Assembly (NCBI GenBank): GCA_943332105.1
Contig: CALQOD010000003.1
Coordinates: 1 to 62,063 of the forward strand
Direction: 5' to 3'
Source: Chitinophaga pinensis
Lineage (GTDB): Bacteria > Bacteroidota > Bacteroidia > AKYH767-A > OLB10
Length of the DNA: 62,063 bases
The position numbers were made by a program, and so were the translations under genes. Of the stretch, positions 2,882-28,994 are shown piece after piece (within the stretch, counting starts at the first letter, position 1; every line of letters starts with the position of its first letter). The notes under the pieces are model-generated. The model had not been told where the DNA came from. It searched no databases and saw only the letters and a program-made list of their open reading frames with translations.

Positions 2882-3913
2882 TTAGCGATCTAAAAAAGAA
2901 CGTTCATTCATTAAATCCCACAACACATCTTTCAGTTCAACAATGCCTTTGTTGGCTACAGCAGAAATAAATAACACTGGAACCTTCATTCCATCATTCA
3001 TTTTATCGACTGGAATTTCATTTAATAATTGTTCTTGCAATTCGTCGTCAATCATATCACATTTCGTAATAGCAATTACTCTTCGCTTATCGATCAATTC
3101 AGGATTGTGTAGTTGCAATTCATTCATCAGAATTTTATATTCTTCACGAATATCTTTCGTGTCAACAGGAATCATAAATAACAATACTGAATTTCGTTCA
3201 ATATGTCGTAAGAAACGTGTTCCTAATCCTCTTCCTTCTGATGCTCCTTCAATAATTCCTGGAATATCAGCCATTACAAACGATTGATTGTCGCGATAGC
3301 GCACCATTCCTAAGTTCGGGACAATGGTCGTGAATGGATAATCAGCAATTTCAGGTTTAGCGGCTGATACAACAGATAGTAATGTCGATTTACCCGCATT
3401 CGGAAATCCAACTAACCCAACATCGGCTAATAATTTTAATTCTAAAATTTTCCATTCTTCTAATCCAGGCTCGCCAGGTTGTGCAAAGCGAGGAGTTTGT
3501 TTAGTAGATGATTTGAAAAAATTATTACCCTTTCCTCCTCTACCACCAGGCGCTATAATTTCTTCTTGTCCGTCATGTTCAATTTCAAAGAGCACTTCAC
3601 CAGTTTCATTATCTTTCGCGATAGTACCAATAGGGACTTCCAAAATAATATCTTCTCCGTCAGCTCCTGTTTTCAAAGCACTACTTCCCGGTTCTCCATC
3701 TTCACCTAAAACATGCTTCCGGTATTTAAGATGTAGCAATGTCCATAATTGAGTGTTACCTTTTATAATGATATGTCCTCCACGACCGCCATCACCACCA
3801 TCAGGACCACCTTTTGCGGTAAGTTTATCTCGGTGAAAATGCACAGCGCCAGCTCCGCCTTTTCCAGAGCGACAACAAATTTTAACATAATCAACGAAGT
3901 TACTTCCCGACAT
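2882..3913 (-). CDS. obgE: GTPase ObgE/CgtA
   Basis: Gly-rich Obg fold ([12 protein letters not shown]), [27 protein letters not shown]. Start moved to ATG 3913. Confidence 0.97.
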
Positions 3914-5220: not shown

Positions 5221-6369
5221 ATGCAACAACAATTCGCAGGTAAAGACTTTAAACTCGGTATTTTAGGTGGAGGCCAGCTTGGGCGTATGCTTATTCAAGA
5301 GGCTATTAACCTTAATCTATCCACATCCGTTTTAGATCCGGATGCGAATGCGCCATGTAGATACTTGGCAGAGCATTTTGTAGTAGGTGATTTTCGAGAT
5401 GAAGAAACTGTATATGCTTTTGGAAAAAAAGTAAATCTTTTAACCATCGAAATTGAGCATGTAAATATTAATGCGCTGCTGCGATTAGAAAGAGAAGGTG
5501 TTTTGGTTTATCCACAACCTCAAATTTTAGCTATGGTGCAAGACAAAGGAATTCAAAAAGAATTTTTTGCATCGCATCAAATCCCTACTGCCGATTTTAA
5601 ATTGATTCACGATAGAGAACATTTAAAAGAAAATATTGGTGAATTGCCTGCTATTTTGAAATTGAGAAAAGGAGGGTACGATGGTAAAGGCGTCATGAAA
5701 TTGAAGGACGCAAATAATTTAAAGGATGCGTTTGATGCACCTTGTGTTTTAGAAAAACTAGTCGATTTTGATTGTGAGATTGCAGTAATTGTTGCTCGTA
5801 ATAATGCTGGAGATATTGTTCATTATCCACCGGTAGATATGGAATTTAATGCTGATGCTAATCTGGTGGAATTCTTATGTAGTCCTGCAAGAATTTCAGA
5901 TGAGATTAAAGAAAAAGCAATTGCTATTGCGCGCAAAGTGGTTGAGAAAACAGGCCTTACGGGAATATTGGCAGTAGAAATGTTCGTCACAAAATCAGGG
6001 GATGTATTAGTGAATGAAATTGCACCGAGGCCACATAATAGCGGACATCAAACAATAGAAGGGAATAATACTTCGCAATATGCACAACATTTAAGAGCTA
6101 TTTTAGGATTACCATTAGGTGATACAACGATTATTTCTCCTTCTGTTATGATAAATTTATTGGGAGAAAAAGGACATACCGGTGAAGCGCATTACGATGG
6201 CATTCGGAATGCGATGGCTAACGGGGGTGTATATGTTCATTTGTACGGAAAAAAAGAAACTAAGCCGATGCGTAAAATGGGACATGTAACAATCCTTGCA
6301 GATACATTAGAATCAGCAATTGCAAGTGCAAAAAAAGTTCAACAGCAAATAAAAGTTTTAACCCGATAA
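5221..6369 (+). CDS. purK: N5-carboxyaminoimidazole ribonucleotide synthase
   Basis: [41 protein letters not shown]. Confidence 0.97.
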
Positions 6370-9811: not shown

Positions 9812-9819
9812 TAACTTCG
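9812..9819 (+). promoter_or_regulatory. -7 box (TAACTTCG) for the S8 protease gene
   Basis: TAnnTTCG 20 nt upstream of ATG 9840. Confidence 0.6.
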
Positions 9820-9839
9820 TGCCTCACGAAACAAAACTT

Positions 9840-12674
9840 ATGATAAAATCCTTACAACTATTAGCTGCTAGTTTATTACTGACGCTAACTACAGTAACAG
9901 CAGGTGTTCCAGGTGCAGGCCAAAGCTACCGCATTCCCGCTAATGTTACAGCTGACGATTACATTGCAAAAACAATTGTATTAAAAGTAAAAGATCAGTA
10001 CAGAGCATCTTGCACTAATGAGCAAATTAATATTACTGCAGTACAACGAATACTTGCTTCTACTAATCAACAATCATTAGCAAAAATTTTCCCTCGTCAT
10101 TTGAAACCAGCTCGTATTACAAACGATTATGGAATGCCTTTAATCGATTTAAGTTTGATTTATGAATTTCAGTATAAGTCGGACGCTGATTTAGTAAAAA
10201 CAATTAATGCATTGTTGCAAACAGGTATTTTTGAATATGTAGAACCTAAGTTTTTACCTAAGGTAGTTGCTTATAATCCAAACGATCCCCAACAAGCTAG
10301 TCAATGGTTTTTAGCCAAAGTTAAATTATTTGATGCATGGGGTGTTCAGCAAGGAGATACGAATGTTGTAATTGGAATTACAGATACTGGTACAGATACG
10401 GATCATCCCGATTTAGCTGCTAATATGAAGCATAACTATAACGATCCTATCAATGGAGTGGATGATGATAATGATGGATACCTTGACAATTTTACAGGGT
10501 GGGATGTAGGAGAAAATGATAATGACGCACAAGTTGGCACGTGTGGTTCATGTGATCATGGTAGTCATGTTGCAGGATGTGCTGATGCAGTTACTGATAA
10601 CGGAGTAGGTGTTGCAGGTCCTGGTTTTAAATGTAAGTTCATGCCTGTGAAAATTGCGGATGCAAGTGGGTCATTAACTAAAGCTTATGAAGGTATTGCT
10701 TATGCTGCGGATAATGGTTGTCAGATTATCAACTGCTCTTGGGGTGGTGCTGGTGGTGGTTCATTCGGACAAAACATTATCGATTACGCAACGAACAATC
10801 AGAACTGCTTAGTAGTAGTTGCTGCAGGTAACAATAATTCAAGTTTAGAATTTTTCCCAGCTGCTTATCCTAATGCATTATGTGTTGCTGCAACAAACTC
10901 TAACGATTCGAAATCTAGTTTCTCTAACTACGGAACATATATCGATGTTTGTGCTCCCGGAAGTAATATCTTTTCAACTGTTGATAATAATTCATACACT
11001 AGTATGAGCGGTACTTCAATGGCATCACCAATTGCTGCTGGATGTGCTGCAATTATTAAATCGCAAAACCCTTCGTTCACAGGATTGCAAGTAGGTGAGC
11101 AGTTAAGAATCACTTGTGATAATATTTATGGTGTTGCTGCAAACAGCGGTTACCAAGGTAAATTAGGTACTGGTCGTATTAATCTATACAAAGGGTTAAC
11201 AATAACAGGTCCTTCTGTTAGAGCAAACAATTTAGTAACGGTTGATAATAACGATAACGTTTTCATCGTGAATGATACATTACGTATTACAGGTGATTTT
11301 ACAAATTACTTATCGCCAACTACTGCATTAACTGTTACACTTTCTACTACTTCAACATTTGTAACTATTCTTGATAACAGTACTACAGTTGGTTTATTAG
11401 GAACATTAGCTACAGTGAATAATACGACAGATCCATTTACTGTTAAGATTAACTCGAATGCTCCTCAAAATACACTGATTACTTTTACTCTAACATTTGT
11501 TGATGGTACTTATACCTCTACACAAACATTTACAAAAACGGTTAATGTGGATTATTTGAATATCACGATGAATGATATTTTTACAACTAACTCTAGTAAA
11601 GGAAGAATTTGCTATAACGGTACTGGTCAGACAGAAGGTTTAGGTTTCGATTATATGAATGGTGGTACTGTTTCTTATGAAACTGGTTTCATGTTAGGAA
11701 CAGCAACAGGTGTTTCTGATAATGTTCGTGGTGCTGCGGGTGGTGCAACTGATGAAGACTTTGCTGCAACACAAACTATTCAACGTAATGATCCTTCACA
11801 ATGGTCAGACTTTGATACATATGGTAAATTCAATGATGCGGTAGCTGCTACTCCTCATAATTTATTGATGAATTTTCGCACGCTTTCATGGACAAATGCA
11901 CCTGATTCTAAATATCACATTTTCGAATATACTATCAAGAATAACGGTGCTGCCTTATCGAACTTATGGGCAGGTATTTTCTCAGACTGGGATATCCAAA
12001 CATATGCGAATAATAAAGCGAATGAAGATGTAAGCTTGAAAATGGGATATGCTTATTGTACGGATACTAGTGGTTTATATGCAGGTATTAAATTGCTGAC
12101 GCAAAACGCTGGATTCAATCACTATGCAGTTGATAATATTACTGGTGGTGCAGGTGGTGCTGATTTATCTGATGGATATGATGAGACAGAAAAGTTTACA
12201 ACACTTTCTACTCCGCGTGCAACAGCAGGTGGTACAGGAACTGGTAATGATGTAATTGATGTTGTTTCTACTGGTCCATTTACTATTGCAACAGGCGATT
12301 CTGTAACAGTAGCATTCGCATTAATTTGTGGAAGTGAATTAGGCGATATTCAAGCTAGCGCTGCTGCTGCTCAAATTAAATATGATTTAGCAACTGCTGT
12401 TAATGAAAACAATGCATCAATCGTAACGATAAATGCTTATCCTAATCCTGCAACAAGCTCTACTGTTATTCCTTTCTACTTAAGAAAAATGAATACTGTT
12501 AAAATGGAAATTGTAGATATTGCTGGTCGTGTAATTAAAACAGAAAACATTAAGAATGTAAATCTTGGTGAAAATCAAATTACACTTGATTTATCAGGAT
12601 ATGCAACTGGGTTATATCATTTCCGCTTAATTGCAGGAGAAGAAGTAGCAATAGGAGCAATTCAAAAATTATAA
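9840..12674 (+). CDS. S8 subtilisin-family serine peptidase with T9SS type A CTD
   Basis: Triad ITDTG / HGSHVAG / SGTSMASP; oxyanion AAGNN; C-terminal AYPNP...GLYHFRL. Confidence 0.93.
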   Translation: MIKSLQLLAASLLLTLTTVTAGVPGAGQSYRIPANVTADDYIAKTIVLKVKDQYRASCTNEQINITAVQRILASTNQQSLAKIFPRHLKPARITNDYGMPLIDLSLIYEFQYKSDADLVKTINALLQTGIFEYVEPKFLPKVVAYNPNDPQQASQWFLAKVKLFDAWGVQQGDTNVVIGITDTGTDTDHPDLAANMKHNYNDPINGVDDDNDGYLDNFTGWDVGENDNDAQVGTCGSCDHGSHVAGCADAVTDNGVGVAGPGFKCKFMPVKIADASGSLTKAYEGIAYAADNGCQIINCSWGGAGGGSFGQNIIDYATNNQNCLVVVAAGNNNSSLEFFPAAYPNALCVAATNSNDSKSSFSNYGTYIDVCAPGSNIFSTVDNNSYTSMSGTSMASPIAAGCAAIIKSQNPSFTGLQVGEQLRITCDNIYGVAANSGYQGKLGTGRINLYKGLTITGPSVRANNLVTVDNNDNVFIVNDTLRITGDFTNYLSPTTALTVTLSTTSTFVTILDNSTTVGLLGTLATVNNTTDPFTVKINSNAPQNTLITFTLTFVDGTYTSTQTFTKTVNVDYLNITMNDIFTTNSSKGRICYNGTGQTEGLGFDYMNGGTVSYETGFMLGTATGVSDNVRGAAGGATDEDFAATQTIQRNDPSQWSDFDTYGKFNDAVAATPHNLLMNFRTLSWTNAPDSKYHIFEYTIKNNGAALSNLWAGIFSDWDIQTYANNKANEDVSLKMGYAYCTDTSGLYAGIKLLTQNAGFNHYAVDNITGGAGGADLSDGYDETEKFTTLSTPRATAGGTGTGNDVIDVVSTGPFTIATGDSVTVAFALICGSELGDIQASAAAAQIKYDLATAVNENNASIVTINAYPNPATSSTVIPFYLRKMNTVKMEIVDIAGRVIKTENIKNVNLGENQITLDLSGYATGLYHFRLIAGEEVAIGAIQKL

Positions 12675-15177: not shown

Positions 15178-15264
15178 AATTGTCTTGCAAAGTAAAGCGA
15201 ATACGACTAATATTTCGCTCTGATGCGTGAAAATTTATTAGATTTGAATTCCAAAACTCTTTCA

Positions 15265-17730
15265 ATGAAAATCAATTTAATCAAGTCACTGAAGTTACTC
15301 GTGTTAGTAGTTCTTACTAGTGTTGCTAACGCTCAAATGCCGATATTTAAATATTCCACTTCTGATGAACAGGTTCCTATTAACTATCGGATTTATAAAT
15401 CAGTTATCATGGATAGTTTAGGTAATTCGTTTTATACGGGTTCGTTTCAAGATAGCATCGATTTAGATCCGGGTGCGGGAGTTCAGTATGTTACTTCACA
15501 TGGTGGAACAGATATCTTTTTATACTCATTGGATTCAAATGGAACCTATCGTTGGGGATTTTCCATTGGTGGTGCTCTTGGCGATTTTAGTATGAAAGTG
15601 CTACCTGAACGAAGTGGGACTGTTTTATTATTAGGATATCAAAATGGTCAGATCGATTTAGATCCCGATACTGGTGTTGCCAATACCCCCGCTACGGGAA
15701 AGGTGTTTGTTGCGCGTTATGATGCGAACGGACATTTTCTAGCTGGATTCGATTTACCGTTAATTACGAATCAATCGAGCGTTACGGATTATCCAGATAT
15801 GGCCATCGATTACAATAACAATATTGTTGTAACTGGTTACGGACAAGGAGATGTTGATCCGGGTGCAGGAGTGTTTACTGTTGGTGGATCATTAAGTGCA
15901 GATATAATTTTAGCAAAGTACACACCTGCATTGCAGTTAGATTGGGCTTTCTCGTTAAATTCAACAAGAGGGATTTCGGAGGTCTCGCATCAGGTAGTGA
16001 TTGATTCTTCAAATAATATTTACATCGCAGGATATTTTAGTACTTCTGATACTGTCGATTTTGATCCAGGTGTTGGTATCGCAAAATTGAATTGCTCTCC
16101 TTCGTATGATATTTTTTATGCAAAGTATAATTCATCAGGTGTATATCAATGGGCAAAAAATCTTACTACCGGTGTTTCTGTTTATGGTACGATGCCTATT
16201 CGTTTAACCATTATTCCTGGCGGAAGATTATTGATTTTTGGATTTGCTTATGCACAGATTGATTTAAATCCTGGTCCGTTTGCAAACTATTATCCCAGCG
16301 GACAATTCGTTGCGCAGTATATGCAGAACACAGGAAGTTTATATTCTGCGTATTCAGTTAATGTAGGTTTTGGAAATGTAATCACAGATTTAAACGTAGA
16401 TAATACAGGTAAAATTTATATCACCGGTAGCTTCAGAGATTCTGTTGATTTCGATATGTTCGGAACAGGAGTTTATAAATTGTATGGAAATACAAGTCCT
16501 CATTCCTCTGAATTTATTGCTTCCTATAATTCAAATCTGCAATTTCGGTGGGCGCGTAATTTAACTACATCCACAGTAGGAACACCTGGAGGAATGATTG
16601 TCACGATTAATAAGCCTGGTTATATTTTATTTACTTCAAGAGTGCAAGGGACCAATGATATGAATCCTTCTGCTGCTGTTTGTATTGTAAGTGCTCCTTC
16701 TACTACCGTAGATGTTCAGGCATGCTGGACGGATGGAGTTATTCCTGCATTTACTGTAAAGCCAGGCGATGCTGATAATAGTGGCGTAGTTGATATGAGT
16801 GATTTATTACCGATTGGCATTTATTACAATGATTCCTCTTATGCTCGTGATACGATTTCTATTTTATGGAATGATCATGTTGCTTCTGCTTGGGATGCAC
16901 CATTGCAATCAAACGGACAAAATCGTGCGCATGCTGATTGTGATGGAAATGGAATTATCAATGCCGATGATACATTAGCGATCAATCAGAATTTTGGTTT
17001 GCTAGGAGCTGTGAATCCTGATTGGACAGAACGTACTGCTACTGCAACAGAAGTTCATTTTATTCCGCAGCAAACAGCGTATTATGCTGGCGATACAGTA
17101 AAGATTCATGTTATGGCAGGAACGCTTGCTAATCCGTATTCGAATTTATTAGGTGCTGCGTATGCTCTTCCGGTATCCTCAAATTATATTCAATCGAATT
17201 CTATAAAATTCTTTTACAGCAATAGTGTTATAGGAGGAGTTTCCAATCTTAAACTTGACCGAGTTCTTTCGAATGCGATAACATCATCAATTATTAAAAC
17301 CGATCACGTTGGTGTGAATGGTTACGGCGAAATAGGCGAGCTTCAATTTGTAGTTCCTTCGAACTATACCACTCCAACCATGGTCCCGCTTCAAGCAAGT
17401 TTATTAAAGTTGGTGGATGCAAATGGAAACAATCTATCGGTAACTCACGCAATTGATACTTTGTATTTGAATATGTCGGTAGGTATGGATGAATTGAATG
17501 AAGCACGTTGGAATGTTTATCCGAATCCGATGAGTGGAAACACGATTCATATCAGTGGTCCGATGCAATTTAGTGCTGCATTGTTGAGCGATATTTCAGG
17601 AAGAGTGCTGGCAGAATTTTCTGGTAATGGAAATTCAAGTTTGATAATTCCATCAACTCTTGATAAAGGAACTTATCTACTACAGTTAATTACAGCGAAA
17701 GGGATTGTTGTTAAGAAGCTGATTTTTTAA
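15265..17730 (+). CDS. T9SS cargo: SBBP-like beta-propeller (DLDPG repeats) + dockerin-like pair + cohesin-like domain + CTD
   Basis: Repeated D(L/F)DPG and ..D..N.Y.TG.F units; GDADNSGVVDMSD and ADCDGNGIINADD loops; VYPNP...GTYLLQL CTD. Confidence 0.8.
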   Translation: MKINLIKSLKLLVLVVLTSVANAQMPIFKYSTSDEQVPINYRIYKSVIMDSLGNSFYTGSFQDSIDLDPGAGVQYVTSHGGTDIFLYSLDSNGTYRWGFSIGGALGDFSMKVLPERSGTVLLLGYQNGQIDLDPDTGVANTPATGKVFVARYDANGHFLAGFDLPLITNQSSVTDYPDMAIDYNNNIVVTGYGQGDVDPGAGVFTVGGSLSADIILAKYTPALQLDWAFSLNSTRGISEVSHQVVIDSSNNIYIAGYFSTSDTVDFDPGVGIAKLNCSPSYDIFYAKYNSSGVYQWAKNLTTGVSVYGTMPIRLTIIPGGRLLIFGFAYAQIDLNPGPFANYYPSGQFVAQYMQNTGSLYSAYSVNVGFGNVITDLNVDNTGKIYITGSFRDSVDFDMFGTGVYKLYGNTSPHSSEFIASYNSNLQFRWARNLTTSTVGTPGGMIVTINKPGYILFTSRVQGTNDMNPSAAVCIVSAPSTTVDVQACWTDGVIPAFTVKPGDADNSGVVDMSDLLPIGIYYNDSSYARDTISILWNDHVASAWDAPLQSNGQNRAHADCDGNGIINADDTLAINQNFGLLGAVNPDWTERTATATEVHFIPQQTAYYAGDTVKIHVMAGTLANPYSNLLGAAYALPVSSNYIQSNSIKFFYSNSVIGGVSNLKLDRVLSNAITSSIIKTDHVGVNGYGEIGELQFVVPSNYTTPTMVPLQASLLKLVDANGNNLSVTHAIDTLYLNMSVGMDELNEARWNVYPNPMSGNTIHISGPMQFSAALLSDISGRVLAEFSGNGNSSLIIPSTLDKGTYLLQLITAKGIVVKKLIF

Positions 17731-20027: not shown

Positions 20028-22454
20028 ATGAGAAAATACATAGTGCTGACAGCAATTTTATTACTGCAATTAAATTTTTCCAACGCGCAGACGTGTATTG
20101 GCACTACAGGACTAAAACATGGTCGTGGGTTTTTCAGTTATCTGAGTTATACAAATGATCATCAGATTATTGTTGGTGGTACTTATGCTACTGCAACACA
20201 GCCTTTCTTTGCTATGGATGGTGATACGTTGTACCCTAACCCCGGAGATATATTAACGGCATTTGCGGCTATTCTCGATACGAATTTTAATCTCATTAGA
20301 ATGTTCAATGTTGTTGGATTTAATTATGCTGGTGGCCCATTTACACCGACACGTATTTGGGATATGGCAGTTGATGATAATAAAAACATTTACATTGTTG
20401 GAGGGTATGCGCAAGATACGCTTACAGCAGGCAATGATACGGTAGTTGGTGATGGTTATCTTGAATGTTTTGTTGCAGGAGTTGATTCAATGGGGAATCA
20501 TATTTTTCTCAAAAGCTTTGGCTCATCATCGTGGTGGACAAGCTACGTGTATAGCGATCGTATAACTGCTGCTGCTTGCGATCATGATGGTAACTTATAT
20601 CTTACAGGAACATTCGGTGGATCGTATTTTAAAGTTAACAGCGATAGTATTGCTAACCTAAGTTTTGTAGGAGTGAATGATAAGCCTCATATTTTTACTG
20701 TGTCGCTTACACCTACAGGACAAACACGCTGGCTCAAGGGTTGTGGCGTTCAGAACTATGATGATTTATCATTAGGAATTGCTGTAGATGATAACGGTAA
20801 TGCATCCATCTGTGGAAGTACTGAAGCAAGTAATGCAAATTTTATTTTTGGAAATATTACTTATCTCTATAAAACATCTCCCAATGCATTTCAAGGATAT
20901 GTTGCTAGTTATGATTCTGTCGGTAATGAACGTTGGTTTTTTCCTATTGATTCCTATACCGGTAGCGGAGATGTTAGCGGCTATGATGTGGCGATGGATG
21001 CAAACGGAAATACCTATACGATGGGATTCTTTGAAGGCTATGCCATTTTTAAAGGAGATACTGTTCGTCCACTTTACGGATATACGAGTAGTTACCTTTT
21101 GAAAATAAATCGAACAGGAGCAAAGCAGTTTGTAAAAACAGGACGTATTGATACTTTCTATCCTTTCCCTGGGAAAATTGATTTGAAAGATGATAAAGTA
21201 TTTATTACAGGACAAACCTACACGAATCAATTATGGTTTGACCAGCTTGGATTATGTTGCAGTAATGATGTTTACTTTGCGATGTATGATACAAGTGGAG
21301 TATTGCAGTGGTTGAAGAGCGGGCAAACAGCTGGTTCATCTAATTTGTATTCATCATCAATTGCGATTGGATACAATGGTACTGCTTATGGTGCAGGACA
21401 AGCTAGTAATGGAAACGTGACTTTTATTCCGCAGACATTTAATGCCGCTTCAGCAGGAGAATATTATTTAACGAAATGGAGTTTGTTAAACAATGCAGGA
21501 TTGTCCGTTTCGATTCAGAATAATACAGGAACAGATACTGTGAATTGTGGTGGGTTAGTGCAACTACAAGCGGTAGTGAGTCCGACTACACCAACACCTC
21601 AGTATTACTGGTATGCAGCTACCGATACATTTACATTTAGTTTCCCCGGAGCCAATCTTCCGGCATCTCCTAAGGTGAATACCTTGTACATTGCATCGGC
21701 TTATGTAAATGGGTGTGTTGCCTCGGATAGTATTGTTATTTACTCAACGCCACCTACTCTCGATTTAGGTTCCGATTTGAATATTTGTATAGGTGATACT
21801 GTTCAATTGAGTGCAACGCAATATGCGAATGCAAAGTATTTGTGGACACCAACTGGTGCAGGGTTTAGCAGCGATACCATTTACAATCCTACGATTGCTC
21901 CCGCTAACACAACCTATTATTATTGTAATTTGAATATCAACGATTGTCGTAATCGTGATTCACTATTTGTATTCGTTAATCCGTTACCGTTAGCCGACTT
22001 TACCTATACACCAGGATTTTTAACGATTGATGTTACTTCTATTTCAGATCCATCTGCGCAATACACCTGGGATTTTGGCGATGGCACCCCACAGCAAAAC
22101 GGATTCACCGCACAGCATAGTTATGTGGCTACAGGTTCATACACTATCTGTTGTTACATGCAAACGCTATGTGGCACTGACAGTATTTGTAAAACGGTTA
22201 ATATAACCAATGTGGGATTAGGAGAAAATGTAATTACAGATTTGTTAGTGATTAATCGAGTAGGGGAGTGGGAAATAAAATCTAACTCTGTAATTCAAAA
22301 TTATTCTTTGATGAATGCTATAGGGCAGGTGACGTATTCTAATAGTAACTATTTCAGCAATATTGTTCTTAATAACGAGCAATTGCCGGATGGTATTTAT
22401 CTACTGCAAATAAGGCTTGCTGATAAAATCAAAGTCATTAAGTTGAAGAAATAA
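20028..22454 (+). CDS. T9SS cargo: SBBP-like propeller + Ig-like/PKD domains + divergent CTD
   Basis: D..GN.Y.TG.F repeats; YTWDFGDG...HSY PKD motif; LPDGIYLLQI...KLKK end without YPNP. Confidence 0.8.
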   Translation: MRKYIVLTAILLLQLNFSNAQTCIGTTGLKHGRGFFSYLSYTNDHQIIVGGTYATATQPFFAMDGDTLYPNPGDILTAFAAILDTNFNLIRMFNVVGFNYAGGPFTPTRIWDMAVDDNKNIYIVGGYAQDTLTAGNDTVVGDGYLECFVAGVDSMGNHIFLKSFGSSSWWTSYVYSDRITAAACDHDGNLYLTGTFGGSYFKVNSDSIANLSFVGVNDKPHIFTVSLTPTGQTRWLKGCGVQNYDDLSLGIAVDDNGNASICGSTEASNANFIFGNITYLYKTSPNAFQGYVASYDSVGNERWFFPIDSYTGSGDVSGYDVAMDANGNTYTMGFFEGYAIFKGDTVRPLYGYTSSYLLKINRTGAKQFVKTGRIDTFYPFPGKIDLKDDKVFITGQTYTNQLWFDQLGLCCSNDVYFAMYDTSGVLQWLKSGQTAGSSNLYSSSIAIGYNGTAYGAGQASNGNVTFIPQTFNAASAGEYYLTKWSLLNNAGLSVSIQNNTGTDTVNCGGLVQLQAVVSPTTPTPQYYWYAATDTFTFSFPGANLPASPKVNTLYIASAYVNGCVASDSIVIYSTPPTLDLGSDLNICIGDTVQLSATQYANAKYLWTPTGAGFSSDTIYNPTIAPANTTYYYCNLNINDCRNRDSLFVFVNPLPLADFTYTPGFLTIDVTSISDPSAQYTWDFGDGTPQQNGFTAQHSYVATGSYTICCYMQTLCGTDSICKTVNITNVGLGENVITDLLVINRVGEWEIKSNSVIQNYSLMNAIGQVTYSNSNYFSNIVLNNEQLPDGIYLLQIRLADKIKVIKLKK

Positions 22455-22497: not shown

Positions 22498-22971
22498 TTA
22501 ATAAACAACTTCAATATCATCCATGCTTATCCAGCCATCGGTCGATTTATAAGACGAGTTATTAAAGAACTCGATATAGATAAAGTTGTTTTGAACTCTT
22601 ATTGGATTACAACGATCGCCTTTAACGAGGTAGGCTTTGCGTTTTGAGCGACTATCTGCTCGAGAATGAAAATAGGTCTTTCCTGCTACAACAACGCATT
22701 CCGAAGCCCTTTCAAAATCCATTTGCCGTTTAGCATTTTCCACCGACTCCATTCTTTCCTTTTTCTCGTCTATTGCTTCTTCCTTATTTTGCAATTCACG
22801 TTCTTTTAATTCCAATTCTTTTTCTTGAAGCTCTAATTCTTTCTTTTTATTTTCTGCAGCTATTTCATCAGGAGATTTTTCGTTAGGATTGTTAGCTGGC
22901 GCATTACAAGAATTTAAAAACAATGCTGATACAAAAACTGCTATTAAATAAAGATGTTTGTTTGGTTTCAT
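22498..22971 (-). CDS. Hypothetical lipoprotein, coiled coil + SH3-like C-terminus
   Basis: Lipobox FLNSC; KELELKEREL coiled coil; YLVKGD...DGWI. Start moved to ATG 22971. Confidence 0.7.
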   Translation of the reverse strand: MKPNKHLYLIAVFVSALFLNSCNAPANNPNEKSPDEIAAENKKKELELQEKELELKERELQNKEEAIDEKKERMESVENAKRQMDFERASECVVVAGKTYFHSRADSRSKRKAYLVKGDRCNPIRVQNNFIYIEFFNNSSYKSTDGWISMDDIEVVY

Positions 22972-23089
22972 ATAGTTATATGTTTGAAGTCCTAAAAATA
23001 TAAATAAAAAGGCTAATAAGCGATACATATAATATTTTAGATTTTAATTGCTTTACTTTATCAAATAATTAATAATAAAAATAAACCCT

Positions 23090-23497
23090 ATGAAAGCTCT
23101 AATTGTATTTCTAATTTCGGTTTTGGTTTTCAACAAATCAATAGCTCAAAATCTAAACAATCCATTAGATGGTGTTTGGATGGGGACGTATCAGTGTGCA
23201 CAAGGGGAAACCGGTATTCGTTTAACTTTAACTGCTATTACAGATTCTACCTTCGATGGAATTTATGATTTTTTTCCGATTTGTTCAAATTATGCTAAAG
23301 ATGTTGAAGTAGGGAAGTACTATGTAACTGGAAATAACGATAGATACCGCAATATTAAGATATTTGGTAGGCAATGGATTTGGAGACCATTAGACTGGTT
23401 TATGGTCGATTTAAGTGGAAAATTATTCGGTGATAAGATCGAAGGGAATATCGTTCAACAGTCGTGCGGAAATTTTAAAATTATTAAACAGGAGTAG
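23090..23497 (+). CDS. Hypothetical exported protein
   Basis: Signal peptide; GVWMGTYQCAQG beta-rich domain with 3 Cys. Confidence 0.7.
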   Translation: MKALIVFLISVLVFNKSIAQNLNNPLDGVWMGTYQCAQGETGIRLTLTAITDSTFDGIYDFFPICSNYAKDVEVGKYYVTGNNDRYRNIKIFGRQWIWRPLDWFMVDLSGKLFGDKIEGNIVQQSCGNFKIIKQE

Positions 23498-23550
23498 TTC
23501 CAAAATATAAATGAATTTTGTTTTGAAACAAATACATTAAAAGAATTTCG

Positions 23551-23570
23551 CGTCACTAATTCGTCACTAA
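23551..23570. repeat. Tandem CGTCACTAA x2 at 11-bp spacing (integrase arm-site-like)
   Basis: Identical 9-mers at 23551-23559 and 23562-23570. Confidence 0.75.
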
Positions 23571-23617
23571 AAAGGATTGTAGCCCCATTTTGAAAATGCG
23601 AAAGCCAGTCTAACTTA

Positions 23618-23645
23618 AACAGGGTTACAGCTTCGCTGTGTTCCT
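23618..23645 (-). repeat. att-like repeat copy 1: T-arm-derived, with GC-GAA-GC hairpin
   Basis: 24/28 identity to 25937-25964; minus strand AGG-AAC-ACAGC-GAA-GCTGT-AAC-CCTGTT. Confidence 0.8.
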
Positions 23646-23843
23646 AAATCCAATTAAATTAAATTACCGCATTAGATTAATGCAAATTAAAATCTAATTT
23701 AATAGTACTTTAAATTAATCATTATCAAGTAATTGTACATTAACATAGTTTAACCAATCAGTGTTTTCTTATGCTTTCCGTCTTGTCAATTTTAAATTCT
23801 CTTTATCTTTAAATTACTTTTAATCATATATCATTAATTGGTT

Positions 23844-23851
23844 TATTTTCG
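23844..23851 (+). promoter_or_regulatory. -7 box (TATTTTCG)
   Basis: TAnnTTCG 20 nt upstream of ATG 23872. Confidence 0.55.
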
Positions 23852-23871
23852 TTGCTTTAACTTTAATTATT

Positions 23872-25749
23872 ATGTCAAATAATAAACATACCACCATTAG
23901 GTTTAACTCAGAAATGGTTCTTGCGATTATTATTTCTGCCTTTTGTTTTCTTTTATATGCGAATACAATTAATCATGGATATGTTTTAGATGATTTTTCA
24001 ATCATAAGTGATAATACAGTAACAACTAAAGGCATAAGTGCAATTCCAGATATCTTCACTCATTTCTATCGTTATGGATATTATAATTCCGATGACGGAA
24101 TTTACAGGCCACTTTCTGTTGTCATGTTCGCAATAGAATGGTCGATTTCACCCAACAACCCTGCACTGAGTCACTTTGTTAATGTTTTACTTTATGTATT
24201 AACCGGGTTTTTACTATTCAAAACATTACGTAAGTTACTCAATGAGTATGATGAAATTTATCCGTTTATAATAACGTTACTTTTTGTTGCTCACCCTGTT
24301 CATACCGAGGTAGTGGCAAATATAAAAAGTAGAGATGAACTATTGAGTTTTCTATTAGTCATTGCTTCTTTAAATTATTTGTTGGATTATATCGTTAATA
24401 AAAAAACAATTCAATTAATTCAATCTTCAATTTTCCTTTTTGGAGCTTTATTATCAAAGGAAACAGCTATAACTATGTTCGTTGTTTTTCCAATTGGAAT
24501 TTACATGTTTACTGAAGCCGACAGAAAAACCATTTTGAAATCTACTGTTGGATTTGGTATTGTTATCCTTCTGTTTTTAGTAATACGATCTTCCATTTTG
24601 AACGCCGACAATTCAACTTATACAGTAACCTCTTTAGAAAATTTATTACTTGCTGCACCTGATAAATCCCATCAAATTTCGACAGCGATAAAAATTCTTG
24701 GAAGTTATTTGTATCTAACTTTTCTTCCTAACGACTTAATTTATGATAGATCATTTAATCAAATATCAATTGTTAGCTTAAATGATATTAGTTTTATTAT
24801 TTCCTTATTAATATTTGTTTCCTTATTAATTTTTGGAATCACTGGAATTATAAAAAAAAATGCAATCGCATTTGGAATAATATTTTACTTAGCAACTTTA
24901 AGTTTATTTAGTAATTTGTTTTTTACAATTGGAGTAGCAATGGCAGATCGATTTTTATTTTTTGCTTCTTTTGGATTCTGCTTTAGTATCGGATTCTTAA
25001 TACTTAAATTATTGAAGCATGTAAATAAGAAAGCTACTAACTATGAATCGTTATCTAATTTCTATTCTAGGAATCGGAAGGTAATTCAAATAACTGGATT
25101 GATCTGTCTTTTATATTCCATTAAAACTGTTTCAAGAAATGGAGATTGGAAGGATAATTTTCATTTATATTCTGCAGATATCTCGAAGCAAGAAAATAAT
25201 TCAAGGGCACATTTGTTTTTAGGAAATGAGCTCATAAAAAATGTTGCATCATCAGAAAAAGATAAGTTTAAACGTGATCAAATTATTTTTCAAGGAATTG
25301 AAGAAGTTAAAAAGTCGCTTTCAATATATCCTAATAATCCCGATGCTTGGAATACAATAGGTGCAGGATACTTTCAAATTGATAGTGCCGATCAAGCCGC
25401 TTACTATTTCGAGAAAGCAATTAAAACAAACCCCGACGATTTAATGAACCTTGCAGGATTATATTTAGCAAAGCAAGAATTCAACAAAGCTATAGAACTC
25501 TTTGAAAAGGTTTTAGTAAAAAATCCTGATAATCTAGATGTCTTAGTTAATCTCGGGATCTGCTATGGCACTATTAAACAATATAGTAAAGCAGTTAGTT
25601 CCTTTAACAAGGCAGTAATATTAGCACCCGAAAATTCGCAACTTTATTATTATCTTTCTACTGCATATAAATTTAATGGAGATAGTATTAATTGCGAGAA
25701 ATATTATCAAGAAGCCTTAAAGTTAGACCCGAATTTAAATCGACCTTAA
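23872..25749 (+). CDS. TMTC-like multi-pass GT-C protein with C-terminal TPRs (paralog 1)
   Basis: GYVLDD, YRPLS, HPVHTEVVANIKSRDELL, LSKE, ADRFLF, WKDNFHLY; about 11 TM segments, then TPRs. Confidence 0.8.
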   Translation: MSNNKHTTIRFNSEMVLAIIISAFCFLLYANTINHGYVLDDFSIISDNTVTTKGISAIPDIFTHFYRYGYYNSDDGIYRPLSVVMFAIEWSISPNNPALSHFVNVLLYVLTGFLLFKTLRKLLNEYDEIYPFIITLLFVAHPVHTEVVANIKSRDELLSFLLVIASLNYLLDYIVNKKTIQLIQSSIFLFGALLSKETAITMFVVFPIGIYMFTEADRKTILKSTVGFGIVILLFLVIRSSILNADNSTYTVTSLENLLLAAPDKSHQISTAIKILGSYLYLTFLPNDLIYDRSFNQISIVSLNDISFIISLLIFVSLLIFGITGIIKKNAIAFGIIFYLATLSLFSNLFFTIGVAMADRFLFFASFGFCFSIGFLILKLLKHVNKKATNYESLSNFYSRNRKVIQITGLICLLYSIKTVSRNGDWKDNFHLYSADISKQENNSRAHLFLGNELIKNVASSEKDKFKRDQIIFQGIEEVKKSLSIYPNNPDAWNTIGAGYFQIDSADQAAYYFEKAIKTNPDDLMNLAGLYLAKQEFNKAIELFEKVLVKNPDNLDVLVNLGICYGTIKQYSKAVSSFNKAVILAPENSQLYYYLSTAYKFNGDSINCEKYYQEALKLDPNLNRP

Positions 25750-25911
25750 TTTATAATTAACTGGATTGTTTAGTTTTTTTTAACCTGAATTATGTGGAAT
25801 AATTCTATTTTGAAAATTGAAAGTTTTTCTAACGTAACATCTAATAAGTTATAGGCTAAATATGATATATAGGTGGTGCATAAAACAAATTAAAGTGATA
25901 AATCCGTACTA

Positions 25912-25972
25912 GGCTTTTGCGTTTATCTGTGGGAGCAACAGGGTGACAGCTACGCTGTGAACCTGTCAACCC
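25912..25972 (-). repeat. att-like repeat copy 2: tRNA-Val 3' half with hairpin inserted in the T-loop
   Basis: Minus strand GGGTTG-ACAGG-TTC-ACAGC-GTA-GCTGT-CAC-CCTGT-TGCTCCC-A-CAG. The 12-mer TCTGTGGGAGCA is identical at 25926 and 26100, and part of the terminator arm is also copied. Confidence 0.85.
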
Positions 25973-26059
25973 AAAGATGCAAAACAAAAAAGTCAACCCT
26001 TCGGGGTGTTTTTACATGTAGCTTTCTAATTTCTCAAGCAAGCTTGATAATTATTCGCT

Positions 26060-26100
26060 AAATGCAAAAAGCCACTCAAATGGAGTGGCTTTTTGCATTT
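26060..26100. terminator. tRNA-Val terminator (18-bp perfect inverted repeat)
   Basis: AAATGCAAAAAGCCACTC / GAGTGGCTTTTTGCATTT. Confidence 0.85.
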
Positions 26101-26103
26101 CTG

Positions 26104-26178
26104 TGGGAGCACACGGGTTCGAACCGCGGACCCTCTGCTTGTAAGGCAGATGCTCTGAACCAGCTGAGCTATGCTCCC
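26104..26178 (-). tRNA. tRNA-Val (anticodon TAC), CCA not encoded
   Basis: GGGAGCA/TGCTCCC acceptor stem, GCTC/GAGC D-stem, TCTGC-CTTACAA-GCAGA anticodon arm, CGCGG-TTCGAAC-CCGTG T-arm. Confidence 0.97.
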
Positions 26179-26333: not shown

Positions 26334-27092
26334 TTAAGGATAGTATTCTATTTGAACTTGTATAACCTTATTTGGTTTTCCATCCTTATAAACTTGTTGT
26401 AAAATCCAATTGCCCTCTTTGTCGAGTATCTGATAGGCGTTTTTAATCTCCCAAATTTTGCTTCTGTCATTTGCAAATCCAGTGTTTTTTTCTAGTCTGC
26501 CTTTTTCATCATAGACGTTTACAGCCCGATAATCCAACGTGCTGTCGGCTAGATAAATCATTTCTTCAATCAATTGGTTTTTTTCATTGTATTTGTTGGT
26601 CGCCGTGAAATCGATTTCATTATTCCCCTTATATCCAGTAGTACCAATAAGATTGTTTTTTTCGTCGAATAGATTAATCTGTTTTATCGTAGAGTTAGTA
26701 TTATGTTCCGTTGTGCTGATCTCTATTAAATTATTGTTTGTATCGTACTTGTAGGTTGAGGTGTAAAGTAGATTTCCTTCCTCATCTGTTTCCTTCGACT
26801 CAGTTTTTATTTTTTCATCGTTAAAAGAATTTTTTCTGATCGATTCCACTTCATCTTCTTCGTTGATGTAAGTATAACTAATCTCATTTCCATCTGTATT
26901 AAATTCACGTATACTCTTGTTGATTAACTTTCCTAAATGAGGCGCCACCTTTGTACTGTCATAAAAAAATGTACCCATCGTAATCGACTTGATTTTACCG
27001 TTCCAATGCTCTTTAATTAAATCACTTGAATCAGAATCTTTTTTGCAAGCAAACAGAAACGATAGGGCTATAAGAAAGTAAATCTTCTTCAT
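26334..27092 (-). CDS. Lipoprotein with YD/RHS-like beta-repeats
   Basis: Lipobox LFAC; repeated Y(K/V)YD..N/G..E units. Start moved to ATG 27092. Confidence 0.75.
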   Translation of the reverse strand: MKKIYFLIALSFLFACKKDSDSSDLIKEHWNGKIKSITMGTFFYDSTKVAPHLGKLINKSIREFNTDGNEISYTYINEEDEVESIRKNSFNDEKIKTESKETDEEGNLLYTSTYKYDTNNNLIEISTTEHNTNSTIKQINLFDEKNNLIGTTGYKGNNEIDFTATNKYNEKNQLIEEMIYLADSTLDYRAVNVYDEKGRLEKNTGFANDRSKIWEIKNAYQILDKEGNWILQQVYKDGKPNKVIQVQIEYYP

Positions 27093-27195
27093 TTTGTAGA
27101 TTCTATATTTTAATTCAAATTTCGATTTCAAATTTAGTCAAATCCGTTGTTGTCGTTATTCTATATTTAGGATTCTTTGTCAATAATGATATAAT

Positions 27196-27231
27196 AAAAA
27201 AAGGGCTGAATTTCTTCAGCCCTTTTTTTTT
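27196..27231. terminator. Bidirectional terminator
   Basis: AAAAAAAGGGCTGAA / TTCAGCCCTTTTTTT. Confidence 0.85.
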
Positions 27232-27245
27232 ATCATAAGTGAAAA

Positions 27246-28994
27246 TTATTTCACAGTTAACTTTTCGCTATAAGAGAAGTCGTTTCCTTCAACTTTAACA
27301 AGGTATAAACCTGCAGCAAATGTAGAAACATCAACTGTAGTGTTCATTTCATTTAATAAAGCATTGTAGATTTCATTTCCTGTTACATCAAAAATACGAA
27401 CTGTTGAATTGTCATATTTCTTAACCTGAATAGCGATTAAATTCTCAGCTGGATTAGGGAATACTTTTACTCCACCAACATTTGTTGCTTCGTTGATGCC
27501 AGTTGCAGAGCTTACTGTAACTAAGTCAACACGGATAGAACTTGATCCAGCAGCACTGAATGCATGCCATCCAATGTAGTAGTTTCCATTTGTAGGAACT
27601 GTGAAAGTATTACTTGATAAATGGTAAATAGAATCTATAACTTCAGAAGCAATTGCCTGAGTTGAAGTTGCCACATCTTGTGAAGTTGCTAAGAAAACTT
27701 CTAAATCACATGGAGCTTGTAAGTCAAATTGACGGTACCAGTAATCTAATTGGTAAGTAGAACCAGCAGACATATTGAAACATCCTGACCACATCCAATC
27801 GTCGTCAGCAGATCCGCTACCAGCTTTACGGATAGCTTGAGTTCCTGAATATGCTAAACTTGCAACTGGAGCCCAAGATACTCCATCGCCATTTGCATCA
27901 TAAACTGCCCATGCTGATAAATCATCAGCAGGTTCGAAATCCATAACATAAGCAGTTGATAAATTCACTGGAGTGAAGTTGTCTACTGTTACAGATAATG
28001 AGTTGTTAGCGGTATTTGCATCGCCAGGCATAGTTGCAGAGCAATTAACTGAAGAACTAGCACCTGTTGATAGGTTTGCTGTAGCTGTAAATGTATAGTC
28101 AGCGCTACTGTTTGGAGCAATAGGGCCTGGAGCAACTTCATTTACTGCAGCCCCACCGTTTACTGAGAAAGAAACAGGGATGTTAGAGATTGAAGATCCT
28201 CCGTAGTTATTAATTGTAATTGTTACAGGAGTTGTAGATGATAATAAACATCCTGAAGATAAAGTAGACGCTGTAACACCAGCATCCACTGCAGCTGGTT
28301 CAAATAATGTTACATCATCAATCATCCAAGAATAACCACATCCTGGTGCTCCAGCTGGTCCAACAAAAGTTGAAGGACTGTAGAATTCAAATCGAATCCA
28401 TACAGTAGCTTGGTTAGCTGCAACCGAAGAAATATTAATATTAACAAGGTCTGGATTTACGTTAGCAGTTCCCCCAGGGCAAAATTCATTATTTAAAACT
28501 GTAGTATTTAAAGGAAACCCAGTCCAATTAATATTGTCAGTGCTCACAAAAACTATTGTGCTATCATCATATCGACGGTAGTATTGCTCAAATGAAATAA
28601 TTACTGCTGAATTACCACTACAGTTAATAGAATTTACAGTAGTCAAGTCAGCTATTTGATCACCTGAACATAAAAGGTCTGAATCGAATAATGCAAAACC
28701 ATTCGTTGCAGTCGTTGATAAAATTCCAGGAATAGCATACAATCCAGAAGGTACACCTGTGCCAATTACCCAATCATCGGTATTCCCAACTTGATTGGAA
28801 ATATCCCAATTGTTTGGGTCAGAGAAGTCATCCGTCCAAATTGTAGCAAGTGATTTTGGCGTAATACCTTTTTGCGAGCTTACAGTCGGAGCGTAGTGGT
28901 TTTTCCCTTTACCATTTGCCAAACGAGCATCTTGCGAAAACCCTAGTTGAAATGTCGTAATTAAGGAAAGTAAAATAAGTAAGTGTTTTTTCAT
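27246..28994 (-). CDS. T9SS cargo with CARDB/Ig-like and cleaved-adhesin (choice-of-anchor J)-like domains
   Basis: Signal peptide; WAVYDANGDGVSW, DDWMWS; VFPNP...GLYLVKV CTD. Confidence 0.8.
   Translation of the reverse strand: MKKHLLILLSLITTFQLGFSQDARLANGKGKNHYAPTVSSQKGITPKSLATIWTDDFSDPNNWDISNQVGNTDDWVIGTGVPSGLYAIPGILSTTATNGFALFDSDLLCSGDQIADLTTVNSINCSGNSAVIISFEQYYRRYDDSTIVFVSTDNINWTGFPLNTTVLNNEFCPGGTANVNPDLVNINISSVAANQATVWIRFEFYSPSTFVGPAGAPGCGYSWMIDDVTLFEPAAVDAGVTASTLSSGCLLSSTTPVTITINNYGGSSISNIPVSFSVNGGAAVNEVAPGPIAPNSSADYTFTATANLSTGASSSVNCSATMPGDANTANNSLSVTVDNFTPVNLSTAYVMDFEPADDLSAWAVYDANGDGVSWAPVASLAYSGTQAIRKAGSGSADDDWMWSGCFNMSAGSTYQLDYWYRQFDLQAPCDLEVFLATSQDVATSTQAIASEVIDSIYHLSSNTFTVPTNGNYYIGWHAFSAAGSSSIRVDLVTVSSATGINEATNVGGVKVFPNPAENLIAIQVKKYDNSTVRIFDVTGNEIYNALLNEMNTTVDVSTFAAGLYLVKVEGNDFSYSEKLTVK

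Follow-up and report, generated by a model that had tools for sequence, protein, structure and literature searches.

The described systems closest to the locus reported here are genomic-island hotspots at transfer RNA (tRNA) and transfer-messenger RNA (tmRNA) genes, which show tandem accretion and repeats of partial tRNAs. Tycheposons that arrive in a Prochlorococcus island displace the older elements deeper into it, and partial tRNAs stay behind (bioRxiv 10.1101/2020.12.28.424599). The ssrA islands of Dehalococcoides are another example of a tRNA/tmRNA hotspot (PMC3146451), and a third is the accretion of cis-mobilizable elements (CIMEs) and integrative mobilizable elements (IMEs) (PMC5704250). 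Here we analyse a 62,063-nt stretch of Bacteroidota DNA (contig CALQOD010000003.1, forward strand; hereafter the window, meaning the whole stretch), in which two hairpin-bearing repeats related to the 3' half of tRNA-Val(TAC) enclose a single gene. A preliminary description, made from the letters of the window alone, had proposed that these hairpins are attC-like folded single-strand recombination sites that accumulate gene cassettes behind a tRNA. Comparison with relatives places the two copies in a mosaic array specific to the tRNA-Val locus, and this is probably an array of scars left by repeated insertion into tRNA-Val and decay, shaped by tandem duplication and quasi-palindrome mutagenesis.

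As in the island hotspots, repeats of the 3' part of the tRNA lie behind an intact tRNA gene, and relatives carry integrase-bearing elements at the same site, sometimes in tandem. Newer insertions likewise push older ones outward, and decayed remnants and cargo without an integrase are found. Three features set the locus apart from the known hotspots. A mini-hairpin is nested in the T-loop of the partial-tRNA repeats; the repeats have multiplied into short mosaic arrays that lack genes, at a spacing of 67-165 nt, and most of them do not bound islands; and their arms have become symmetrical, apparently by template switching.

The loci of relatives all come from freshwater metagenomes or metagenome-assembled genomes (MAGs) labelled Bacteroidota, and comprise 12 or more loci within one genus. 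Two close relatives (L007 and L008) were recovered in a metagenome scan with the 625-aa protein encoded between the copies, and a protein search with the 252-aa lipoprotein encoded beside the tRNA returned 38 homologues, whose contigs gave about 10 further versions of the locus. Three contigs from NCBI MAGs represent the same strain as the window and added no information. The identity of conserved genes to the window is 92-98% for L017 and L018, 84-91% for L019-L025 and L029, and 80-83% for L027. Array modules were annotated by blastn-short. The core of the locus in the window consists of four features.

26103-26178, minus strand: intact tRNA-Val(TAC), recognised by ARAGORN and Rfam.
25925-25978, minus strand: copy B, a chimeric repeat unit (48.4 bits with the covariance model described below).
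23872-25749, plus strand: gene for a lineage-specific 625-aa membrane protein with PMT_2 and TPR domains, the sole open reading frame (ORF) between the copies.
23614-23652, minus strand: copy A, a repeat unit H of the H'' type (50.6 bits).

The tRNA-Val is the only tRNA gene of the window and its sole match in Rfam, which returned no family for the repeat units. Its T-arm allele, CGCGG-TTCGAAC-CCGTG, is confined to one species cluster (the window, L017, L007 and L008), and the tRNA-Val of the other relatives has ACAGG-TTCGAAT/C-CCTGT. The six substitutions that separate the window tRNA from those of the relatives are all clustered in the T-arm, with the other 59 nt identical, as expected if an element-borne copy replaced the 3' half of the tRNA. 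Downstream of the intact gene, its 3' part occurs again as a direct repeat. The 12-mer TCTGTGGGAGCA (the acceptor 3' strand plus 4 trailer nt, in plus-strand reading) has exactly two sites, at 25926-25937 and 26100-26111, and copy B contains CCTGTTGCTCCCAC.

In tRNA sense, copy B reads GGGTTG ACAGG TTC ACAGC GTA GCTGT CAC CCTGT TGCTCCCA CAG. The stretch from GGGTTG to CCTGT (25938-25966) is an H unit, and it is fused to a genuine acceptor strand, TGCTCCCAC (within 25929-25942). Its T-stem is ACAGG/CCTGT, where the window's own tRNA has CGCGG/CCGTG. This stem is the allele carried by the resident tRNA-Val genes of L019, L020, L022, L024, L027 and L029, in keeping with the earlier suggestion that the copy came from another allele. 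It also retains a native flank.

25896-25929, minus strand: first 34 nt of the native tRNA-Val trailer, 91% identical to the sequence directly behind the tRNA in L029 and L022.

The native allele and the 34 nt of trailer together mark copy B as a displaced 3' half of the tRNA. It is also a chimera, with an H unit in the context of a terminator module (t1, below) on the left and, starting with CCTGT on the right, the genuine 3' end of a tRNA that still bears its original flank. Copy A reads AGG AAC ACAGC GAA GCTGT AAC CCTGT in tRNA sense, has its left outer arm replaced by module p, and is an ordinary unit of the array. The two copies agree at 24 of 28 positions. The pattern ACAGCGNAGCTGT has exactly two sites in the window, 23627-23639 with loop GAA and 25946-25958 with loop GTA, both on the minus strand; 0.07 would be expected by chance, and a count of two was reached in 0 of 100 shuffles. 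Folded as single-stranded DNA, copy B pairs better than its shuffles (z of -2.7 and -3.4 on the two strands), with pairing that reaches outward to 25925-25978. Copy A alone folds no better than its shuffles (z of -0.5), and its nearest-neighbour energy is ordinary. As a description of the two repeats (coordinates, loops, acceptor repeat, stems and the one ORF between them), the preliminary account was accurate.

The repeat unit, here called H, has the form (GGGTT) ACAGG TTA/TTC ACAGC GNA GCTGT AAT/AAC CCTGT. Between one and four copies lie behind tRNA-Val in every relative whose contig extends past the tRNA, which bears out the anticipated recurrence of the motif among Bacteroidota across the 12 or more loci. 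A covariance model (R1), built from 21 distinct H units and run over 286 kb from about 10 genomes, gave strong matches in tRNA-Val arrays only. Genuine T-arms matched weakly, at about 20 bits, which fits a derivation of the unit from a T-arm. The inner hairpin replaces the central G of the T-loop, since its flanks TTC...AAT are the outer bases of the T-loop TTCGAAT; the earlier claims of a T-arm origin and of a hairpin in place of the loop centre are both borne out. The strict pattern CACAGCNNNGCTGTNACCCTGTT had 3 matches over 185,579 species genomes (Amycolatopsis, Granulicella and Abditibacteriaceae), which is the chance level (about 4 matches expected for 19 specified bases). This pattern is too strict for the variants of sister species, so that the scan shows only that the exact motif is not widespread. 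A scan of viral contigs gave 0 matches, and among RNA runs a single one, which held 5% of the sampled words, came up and was not usable.

Enterobacterial repetitive extragenic palindromes (REP) and bacterial interspersed mosaic elements (BIME) are extragenic mosaics of palindromic units and a small set of linker motifs. The array behind tRNA-Val resembles this architecture, being a mosaic of palindromic units with few recurrent linkers in extragenic DNA. One could therefore imagine dispersed palindromes moved by a Y1 transposase of the RAYT type and seen only locally because the window is small, but we give this almost no credence. The units occur at one locus in the 286 kb scanned, they are clearly homologous to the T-arm of the adjacent tRNA from which they derive, no RAYT gene accompanies them, and no HUH or Y1 transposase is encoded among the window ORFs of 120 aa or more.

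Most H copies stand in gene-free arrays (L022, L024, L027, L029 and L020), spaced 67-165 nt apart and joined by few linker modules. The repetition can be very regular: L022 has a perfect 67-nt tandem repeat of H plus linker a, and L029 a near-perfect repeat of 112 nt. The corresponding modules in the window, from the tRNA outward, are as follows.

26060-26100, strand unassigned: module term2, a perfect hairpin of 18 bp that resembles a bidirectional terminator and stands immediately behind the tRNA.
26019-26047, minus strand: module r, with palindrome TCAAGCTTGCTTGA, recurring in the arrays of relatives.
25970-26013, minus strand: module t1, a hairpin (ACCCC-GAA-GGGTT) that resembles a terminator and is bordered by A and T runs.
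23647-23665, minus strand: partial linker p (AATTTAATTTAATTGGATT), inside which lies the distal junction of the 625-aa segment.
23583-23606, minus strand: linker a (GGCTTTCGCATTTTCAAAATGGGG), found after nearly every H unit in relatives.

Module t1 is present at 25970-26013 in the window, at 7737-7780 in L024, at 3576-3619 and 3722-3765 in L027, and at 17035-17076 in L020. Its flanks (AAAAACAA ... CTTTTTTGTTT) are common to the terminator supplied behind the tRNA by integrative elements. The t1 hairpin has a C-GAA-G tip and shows a compensatory change between AACCC/GGGTT and AATCC/GGATT. The native tRNA terminator of L022 has a C-GAA-G tip as well (GTAC-GAA-GTAC). Across the window, hairpins show no general excess of GAA triloops, and a consensus scan for terminators and promoters gave no excess. 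Full linker p is AATCCAATTTAATTTAATTGGATT. Linker a measures 31 nt (GTGGACAGGCTTTCGCATTTTCAAAATGGGG, containing the palindrome CATTTTCAAAATG) and is near-invariant across species whose coding DNA differs by 15-20%. It lies at 23583-23606 in the window and at 5612-5642, 5679-5709 and 5746-5776 in L022, and occurs also in L029, L024, L027 and L020. A further module, e, consists of half a T-stem fused to the sequence that precedes the arm sites of an integrase.

Integrative elements occupy the tRNA-Val of several relatives. Intact elements of about 6 kb are inserted in the genuine tRNA-Val of L020, L034 and L019, the last with a direct tandem pair (n=4). The pair in L019 (11098-16756 and 17053 onward) is accretion directly observed. 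The elements encode an integrase (Arm-DNA-bind_5, Phage_int_SAM_5, Phage_integrase), a DUF3987 protein, an HTH_17 protein and small ORFs. They are flanked by a repeat of 46 nt that runs from the anticodon loop to one base past the tRNA 3' end, bring their own terminator, and carry two arm-type repeats (TAGTGAYG) about 70 nt from the tRNA. None of the four elements had used an H unit as its insertion site, though in L020 up to three H units lie 150-450 nt away. In the window, one trace of such an element stands just distal to copy A and linker a.

23544-23578, minus strand: left-end remnant of an integrative element, carrying two arm-type repeats (TAGTGACG twice) and agreeing at 34 of 35 positions with the intact element of L034.

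The arrays of L024, L027 and L029 end in homologous remnants, beside a conserved gene for an 808-aa protein. Among window ORFs of 120 aa or more, no recombinase or transposase was found in the 62 kb, and a tblastn search of the window with the L019 integrase gave no match. The check for a co-occurring tyrosine recombinase, suggested with the cassette proposal, has its answer in the arm-binding integrase of the relatives' elements.

These data bear directly on the idea of a cassette system. Like integron attC and CTX-phage attP, the H units are imperfect palindromes that could fold as single strands, and in the window two of them flank a gene. The motif also recurs, mostly with GNA loops on the tRNA-sense strand, the gene content of the locus varies, and one gene lies between two units in this species cluster. 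Against this, most intervals between units are gene-free linkers of 67-165 nt and not the single variable genes that had been predicted. The 625-aa segment begins after the acceptor strand and 34-nt trailer of copy B and ends inside linker p, so that its junctions are not equivalent points of two H units. The relatives' elements recombine in duplex tRNA sequence, unlike attC and CTX attP, with a 46-nt duplex identity between their att sites and an integrase of the classical arm-binding type. No IntI-type integrase, attI or Pc is present, ORFs and sites do not alternate regularly one by one, and the conserved attC core is not seen by eye. The strict-pattern scan of the 185,579 species genomes gave nothing outside the genus beyond chance. 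Membership of the integrons fails on every feature tested, namely integrase, alternation and cassette boundaries, and we regard attC-like sites that accumulate cassettes behind the tRNA as very improbable. The non-GNA loops considered next count against them too.

The loops of the 21 distinct units, read on the tRNA-sense strand, are GAA (14), GTA (3), GCA (1), AAA (1), ATG (1) and TTC (1). GNA is thus found in 18 of the 21, which gives G-C-G-N-A-G-C at the tip (GCGAAGC, GCGTAGC or GCGCAGC), as in the d(GCGNAGC) mini-hairpins of DNA (PMC13037366, PMC3201870). The likeness is one of tip sequence, and ATG, AAA and TTC loops occur here in addition. The GNA bias foreseen from two copies therefore stands as a count, but it mostly reflects common descent: most units share ancestry, independent loop events are few, about four of them departing from GNA and two keeping it. 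Pairing reaches 98% in the inner helix, where compensatory change is of a single type (C-G to A-U), and 82% in the outer helix. The covariation that had been anticipated is limited to this one type, and template switching can mimic it.

Two clustered changes point to such a process. In L008, GTTACAGCTTC is the exact reverse complement of GAAGCTGTAAC, the sequence covering the loop, right inner stem and right bulge of an L017-type unit; the change inverts the loop (to TTC) and yields a perfect stem of 24 bp. Both L007 and L008 have AACCCAAAGAT in place of TGCTCCCACAGAT, and the replacing sequence is exactly the left arm in reverse complement. Judged by sequence, both changes bear the signature of template switching within one strand of a quasi-palindrome. 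Templated mutation of the Ripley type is quasi-palindrome template-switch mutagenesis, and the changes seen here conform to it in that several bases at once become the exact reverse complement of the opposite arm, inversion of the loop included, and bring the palindrome closer to perfection. The setting differs from that of reporter-gene studies of template switching, since the comparison here is between natural strains and the mechanism is read from sequence only. Such switching produces apparent compensation without selection, and it would imply that the hairpin forms in vivo during replication.

The explanation that we consider probable combines these processes. Elements with a tyrosine integrase would have inserted repeatedly in the 3' half of tRNA-Val, each insertion supplying a new 3' half and terminator and pushing the old 3' half outward. 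Decay of the elements by internal deletion would then leave terminator modules (term2, t1), remnants of arm sites and displaced T-arms. One displaced T-arm, itself a quasi-palindrome, may have gained a nested C-GAA-G hairpin, as a 12-nt insertion in the middle of its T-loop, and so become H. From the sequences we infer that H subsequently multiplied by tandem duplication and unequal or illegitimate recombination, that it recombined with newer scars to give copy B, and that within-strand template switching keeps it palindromic. The 625-aa gene would be lineage-specific cargo stranded inside the array. The hairpins would accordingly be scars and substrates of rearrangement, without function as dedicated recombination sites. 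This comes close to the fallback offered with the cassette proposal, a decayed attR with a template-switch duplication.

Several observations weigh against an array of scars. Between species, the array modules share 86-94% identity, compared with only 52-72% for the third codon positions of the 808-aa genes, and passive scars should decay faster than this unless they are re-seeded by elements moving between species. The GNA loop and the inner stem are well kept, with 98% of cells paired. The same type of nested hairpin is present in every H unit, something that one scar per integration cannot produce and that calls for duplication or gene conversion. The conservation of the modules hints either at constraint or at recent coalescence through re-seeding by elements that cross between species. 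Re-seeding seems the better of the two, because the arm remnant matches the L034 element at 34 of 35 positions compared with 81-86% for the host genes of L034.

If constraint were the cause, H units, linker a and t1 would be structured elements with a function, maintained by selection. They might form a terminator or insulator block that shields the tRNA gene and its neighbours, serve as inactivated att sites holding cargo in place, or act as priming signals in single strands, as other mini-hairpins do. In favour of this, conservation of the modules between species exceeds that of synonymous sites, the GNA loops vary at N (A, C or T) in otherwise well-paired inner stems with a compensatory C-G to A-U change, H units are present in all lineages including the minimal locus of L022, and C-GAA-G loops recur in t1 and in the L022 terminator. 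Mini-hairpins of the GCGAAGC/CCGAAGG type are also found at replication or priming sites (PMC13037366). However, close relatives differ freely in how many units they have (1 to 4) and in what order, the outer stems are decaying (82% paired), ATG and AAA loops and broken stems persist, and the loop of L008 is inverted. Palindrome-templated correction makes 'compensatory' changes without selection, no Rfam family matches, and the RNA runs gave no usable data. On balance we consider selection on these modules unlikely. A narrower version, in which the T-arm units with a nested GNA mini-hairpin and linker a are selected as folded DNA or RNA elements of the tRNA-Val hotspot, is more doubtful again; possible roles would be att sites inactivated in the overlap region to lock cargo, secondary or single-strand recombination sites, or priming sites. 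Were it true, selected hairpin units would explain module conservation above that of synonymous sites across the genus. This high conservation is the only element of the locus that could hide something new.

Read as an array of scars, the locus is a natural case in which the ageing of a tRNA integration hotspot can be followed in fine detail. Displaced halves of the tRNA would turn into quasi-palindromic minisatellites, recombine with newer scars, as in copy B, and then be made symmetrical by template switching. It also carries a caution: two hairpin repeats around one gene need not mean a cassette system, and here the comparison with relatives was decisive.

The content of the interval between tRNA-Val and the ExbB/ExbD operon differs by lineage, so that the enclosed gene is not fixed in the clade; its fixation would have counted against the cassette proposal. 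In L022 the interval holds no gene, and in L024, L027 and L029 only the gene for the 808-aa PKD protein. L020 has an element, a TPR gene, a DUF4468 gene and the 808-aa gene. The window and L017 share the 625-aa gene, a small gene (135 aa in the window, 66 aa in L017), a 176-aa gene and the 808-aa gene, and L007 and L008 have the 625-aa gene and a truncated 808-aa gene. Besides the 625-aa gene, three other genes of the window are relevant.

22498-23497: two lineage-specific small genes, of 176 aa (minus strand) and 135 aa (plus strand).
58516-60597, minus strand: core PMT/TPR gene of 693 aa.

The small genes lie between the element remnant and the conserved 808-aa gene and are probably the residue of an older insertion. 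The 625-aa protein is a full-length distant paralogue (27% identity, E 7e-62) of the core PMT/TPR protein, whose gene is 33 kb away, and the stretch that carries the 625-aa gene has a G+C content of 0.29-0.31 versus about 0.36. In L007 and L008 the distal bound of the 625-aa segment is a decayed second displaced tRNA 3' half. It has the native ACAGG/CCTGT stem and term2 and r copies of its own, and its T-loop (TATCGCGTCGAGC) has expanded independently. At 539-640 of L007 and 30-121 of L008, the 808-aa gene breaks off after about 92 nt and runs on into the palindrome of module r, CAAGCTTG. Compared with the window, this deletion has cost L007 and L008 the rest of the 808-aa gene and both small genes (176 aa and 135 aa). 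The joints found in four metagenome runs, examined as assembled Logan contigs, correspond to fixed arrangements of the L007/L008 type or of the tandem array, and not to excision products.

The 96% identity of the 625-aa segment to that of L007, versus 84% for its flanks, had suggested a recent horizontal transfer, which was rejected: the hypervariable 252-aa gene accounts for the low flank identity, and identity is 96-100% in ExbB and the outer flanks. In its central part, this lipoprotein gene (26334-27092, minus strand) is only 67-73% identical to its L007 counterpart, and the DNA on either side of it (ExbB, the tRNA region and 27128-27357) is 91-100% identical. Across the genus, identity of the 252-aa protein ranges from 52 to 96%, and from these sequences it looks like a hypervariable or allele-swapped surface protein.

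Other insertions were seen near the same tRNA in relatives. A different insertion, at 5503-6591 of L031, follows directly on the tRNA-Val 3' end. Its genes are one of the Metallophos type and one that is MORN-like, its terminator (AAATCGCCTCAAGGCGATTT) is new and its trailer different, and its far boundary lies beyond the contig end. In L024 (5171-5920) and L025 (5778-6488), an rve-family transposase gene (an insertion sequence element) and a 144-aa ORF are inserted between the gene for a type IX secretion system protein and the 252-aa gene; both are absent from the window.

Elsewhere in the window, large secreted proteins with a Por_Secre_tail domain (type IX secretion) are encoded at 20028-22454, 27246-28994, 9819-12674 and 15223-17730, and a glycoside hydrolase cluster (GH20, GH2-like, GH92 and a major facilitator superfamily (MFS) gene) extends over 29.7-38.9 kb. 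These regions, free of mobile-element genes, are ordinary Bacteroidota chromosome.

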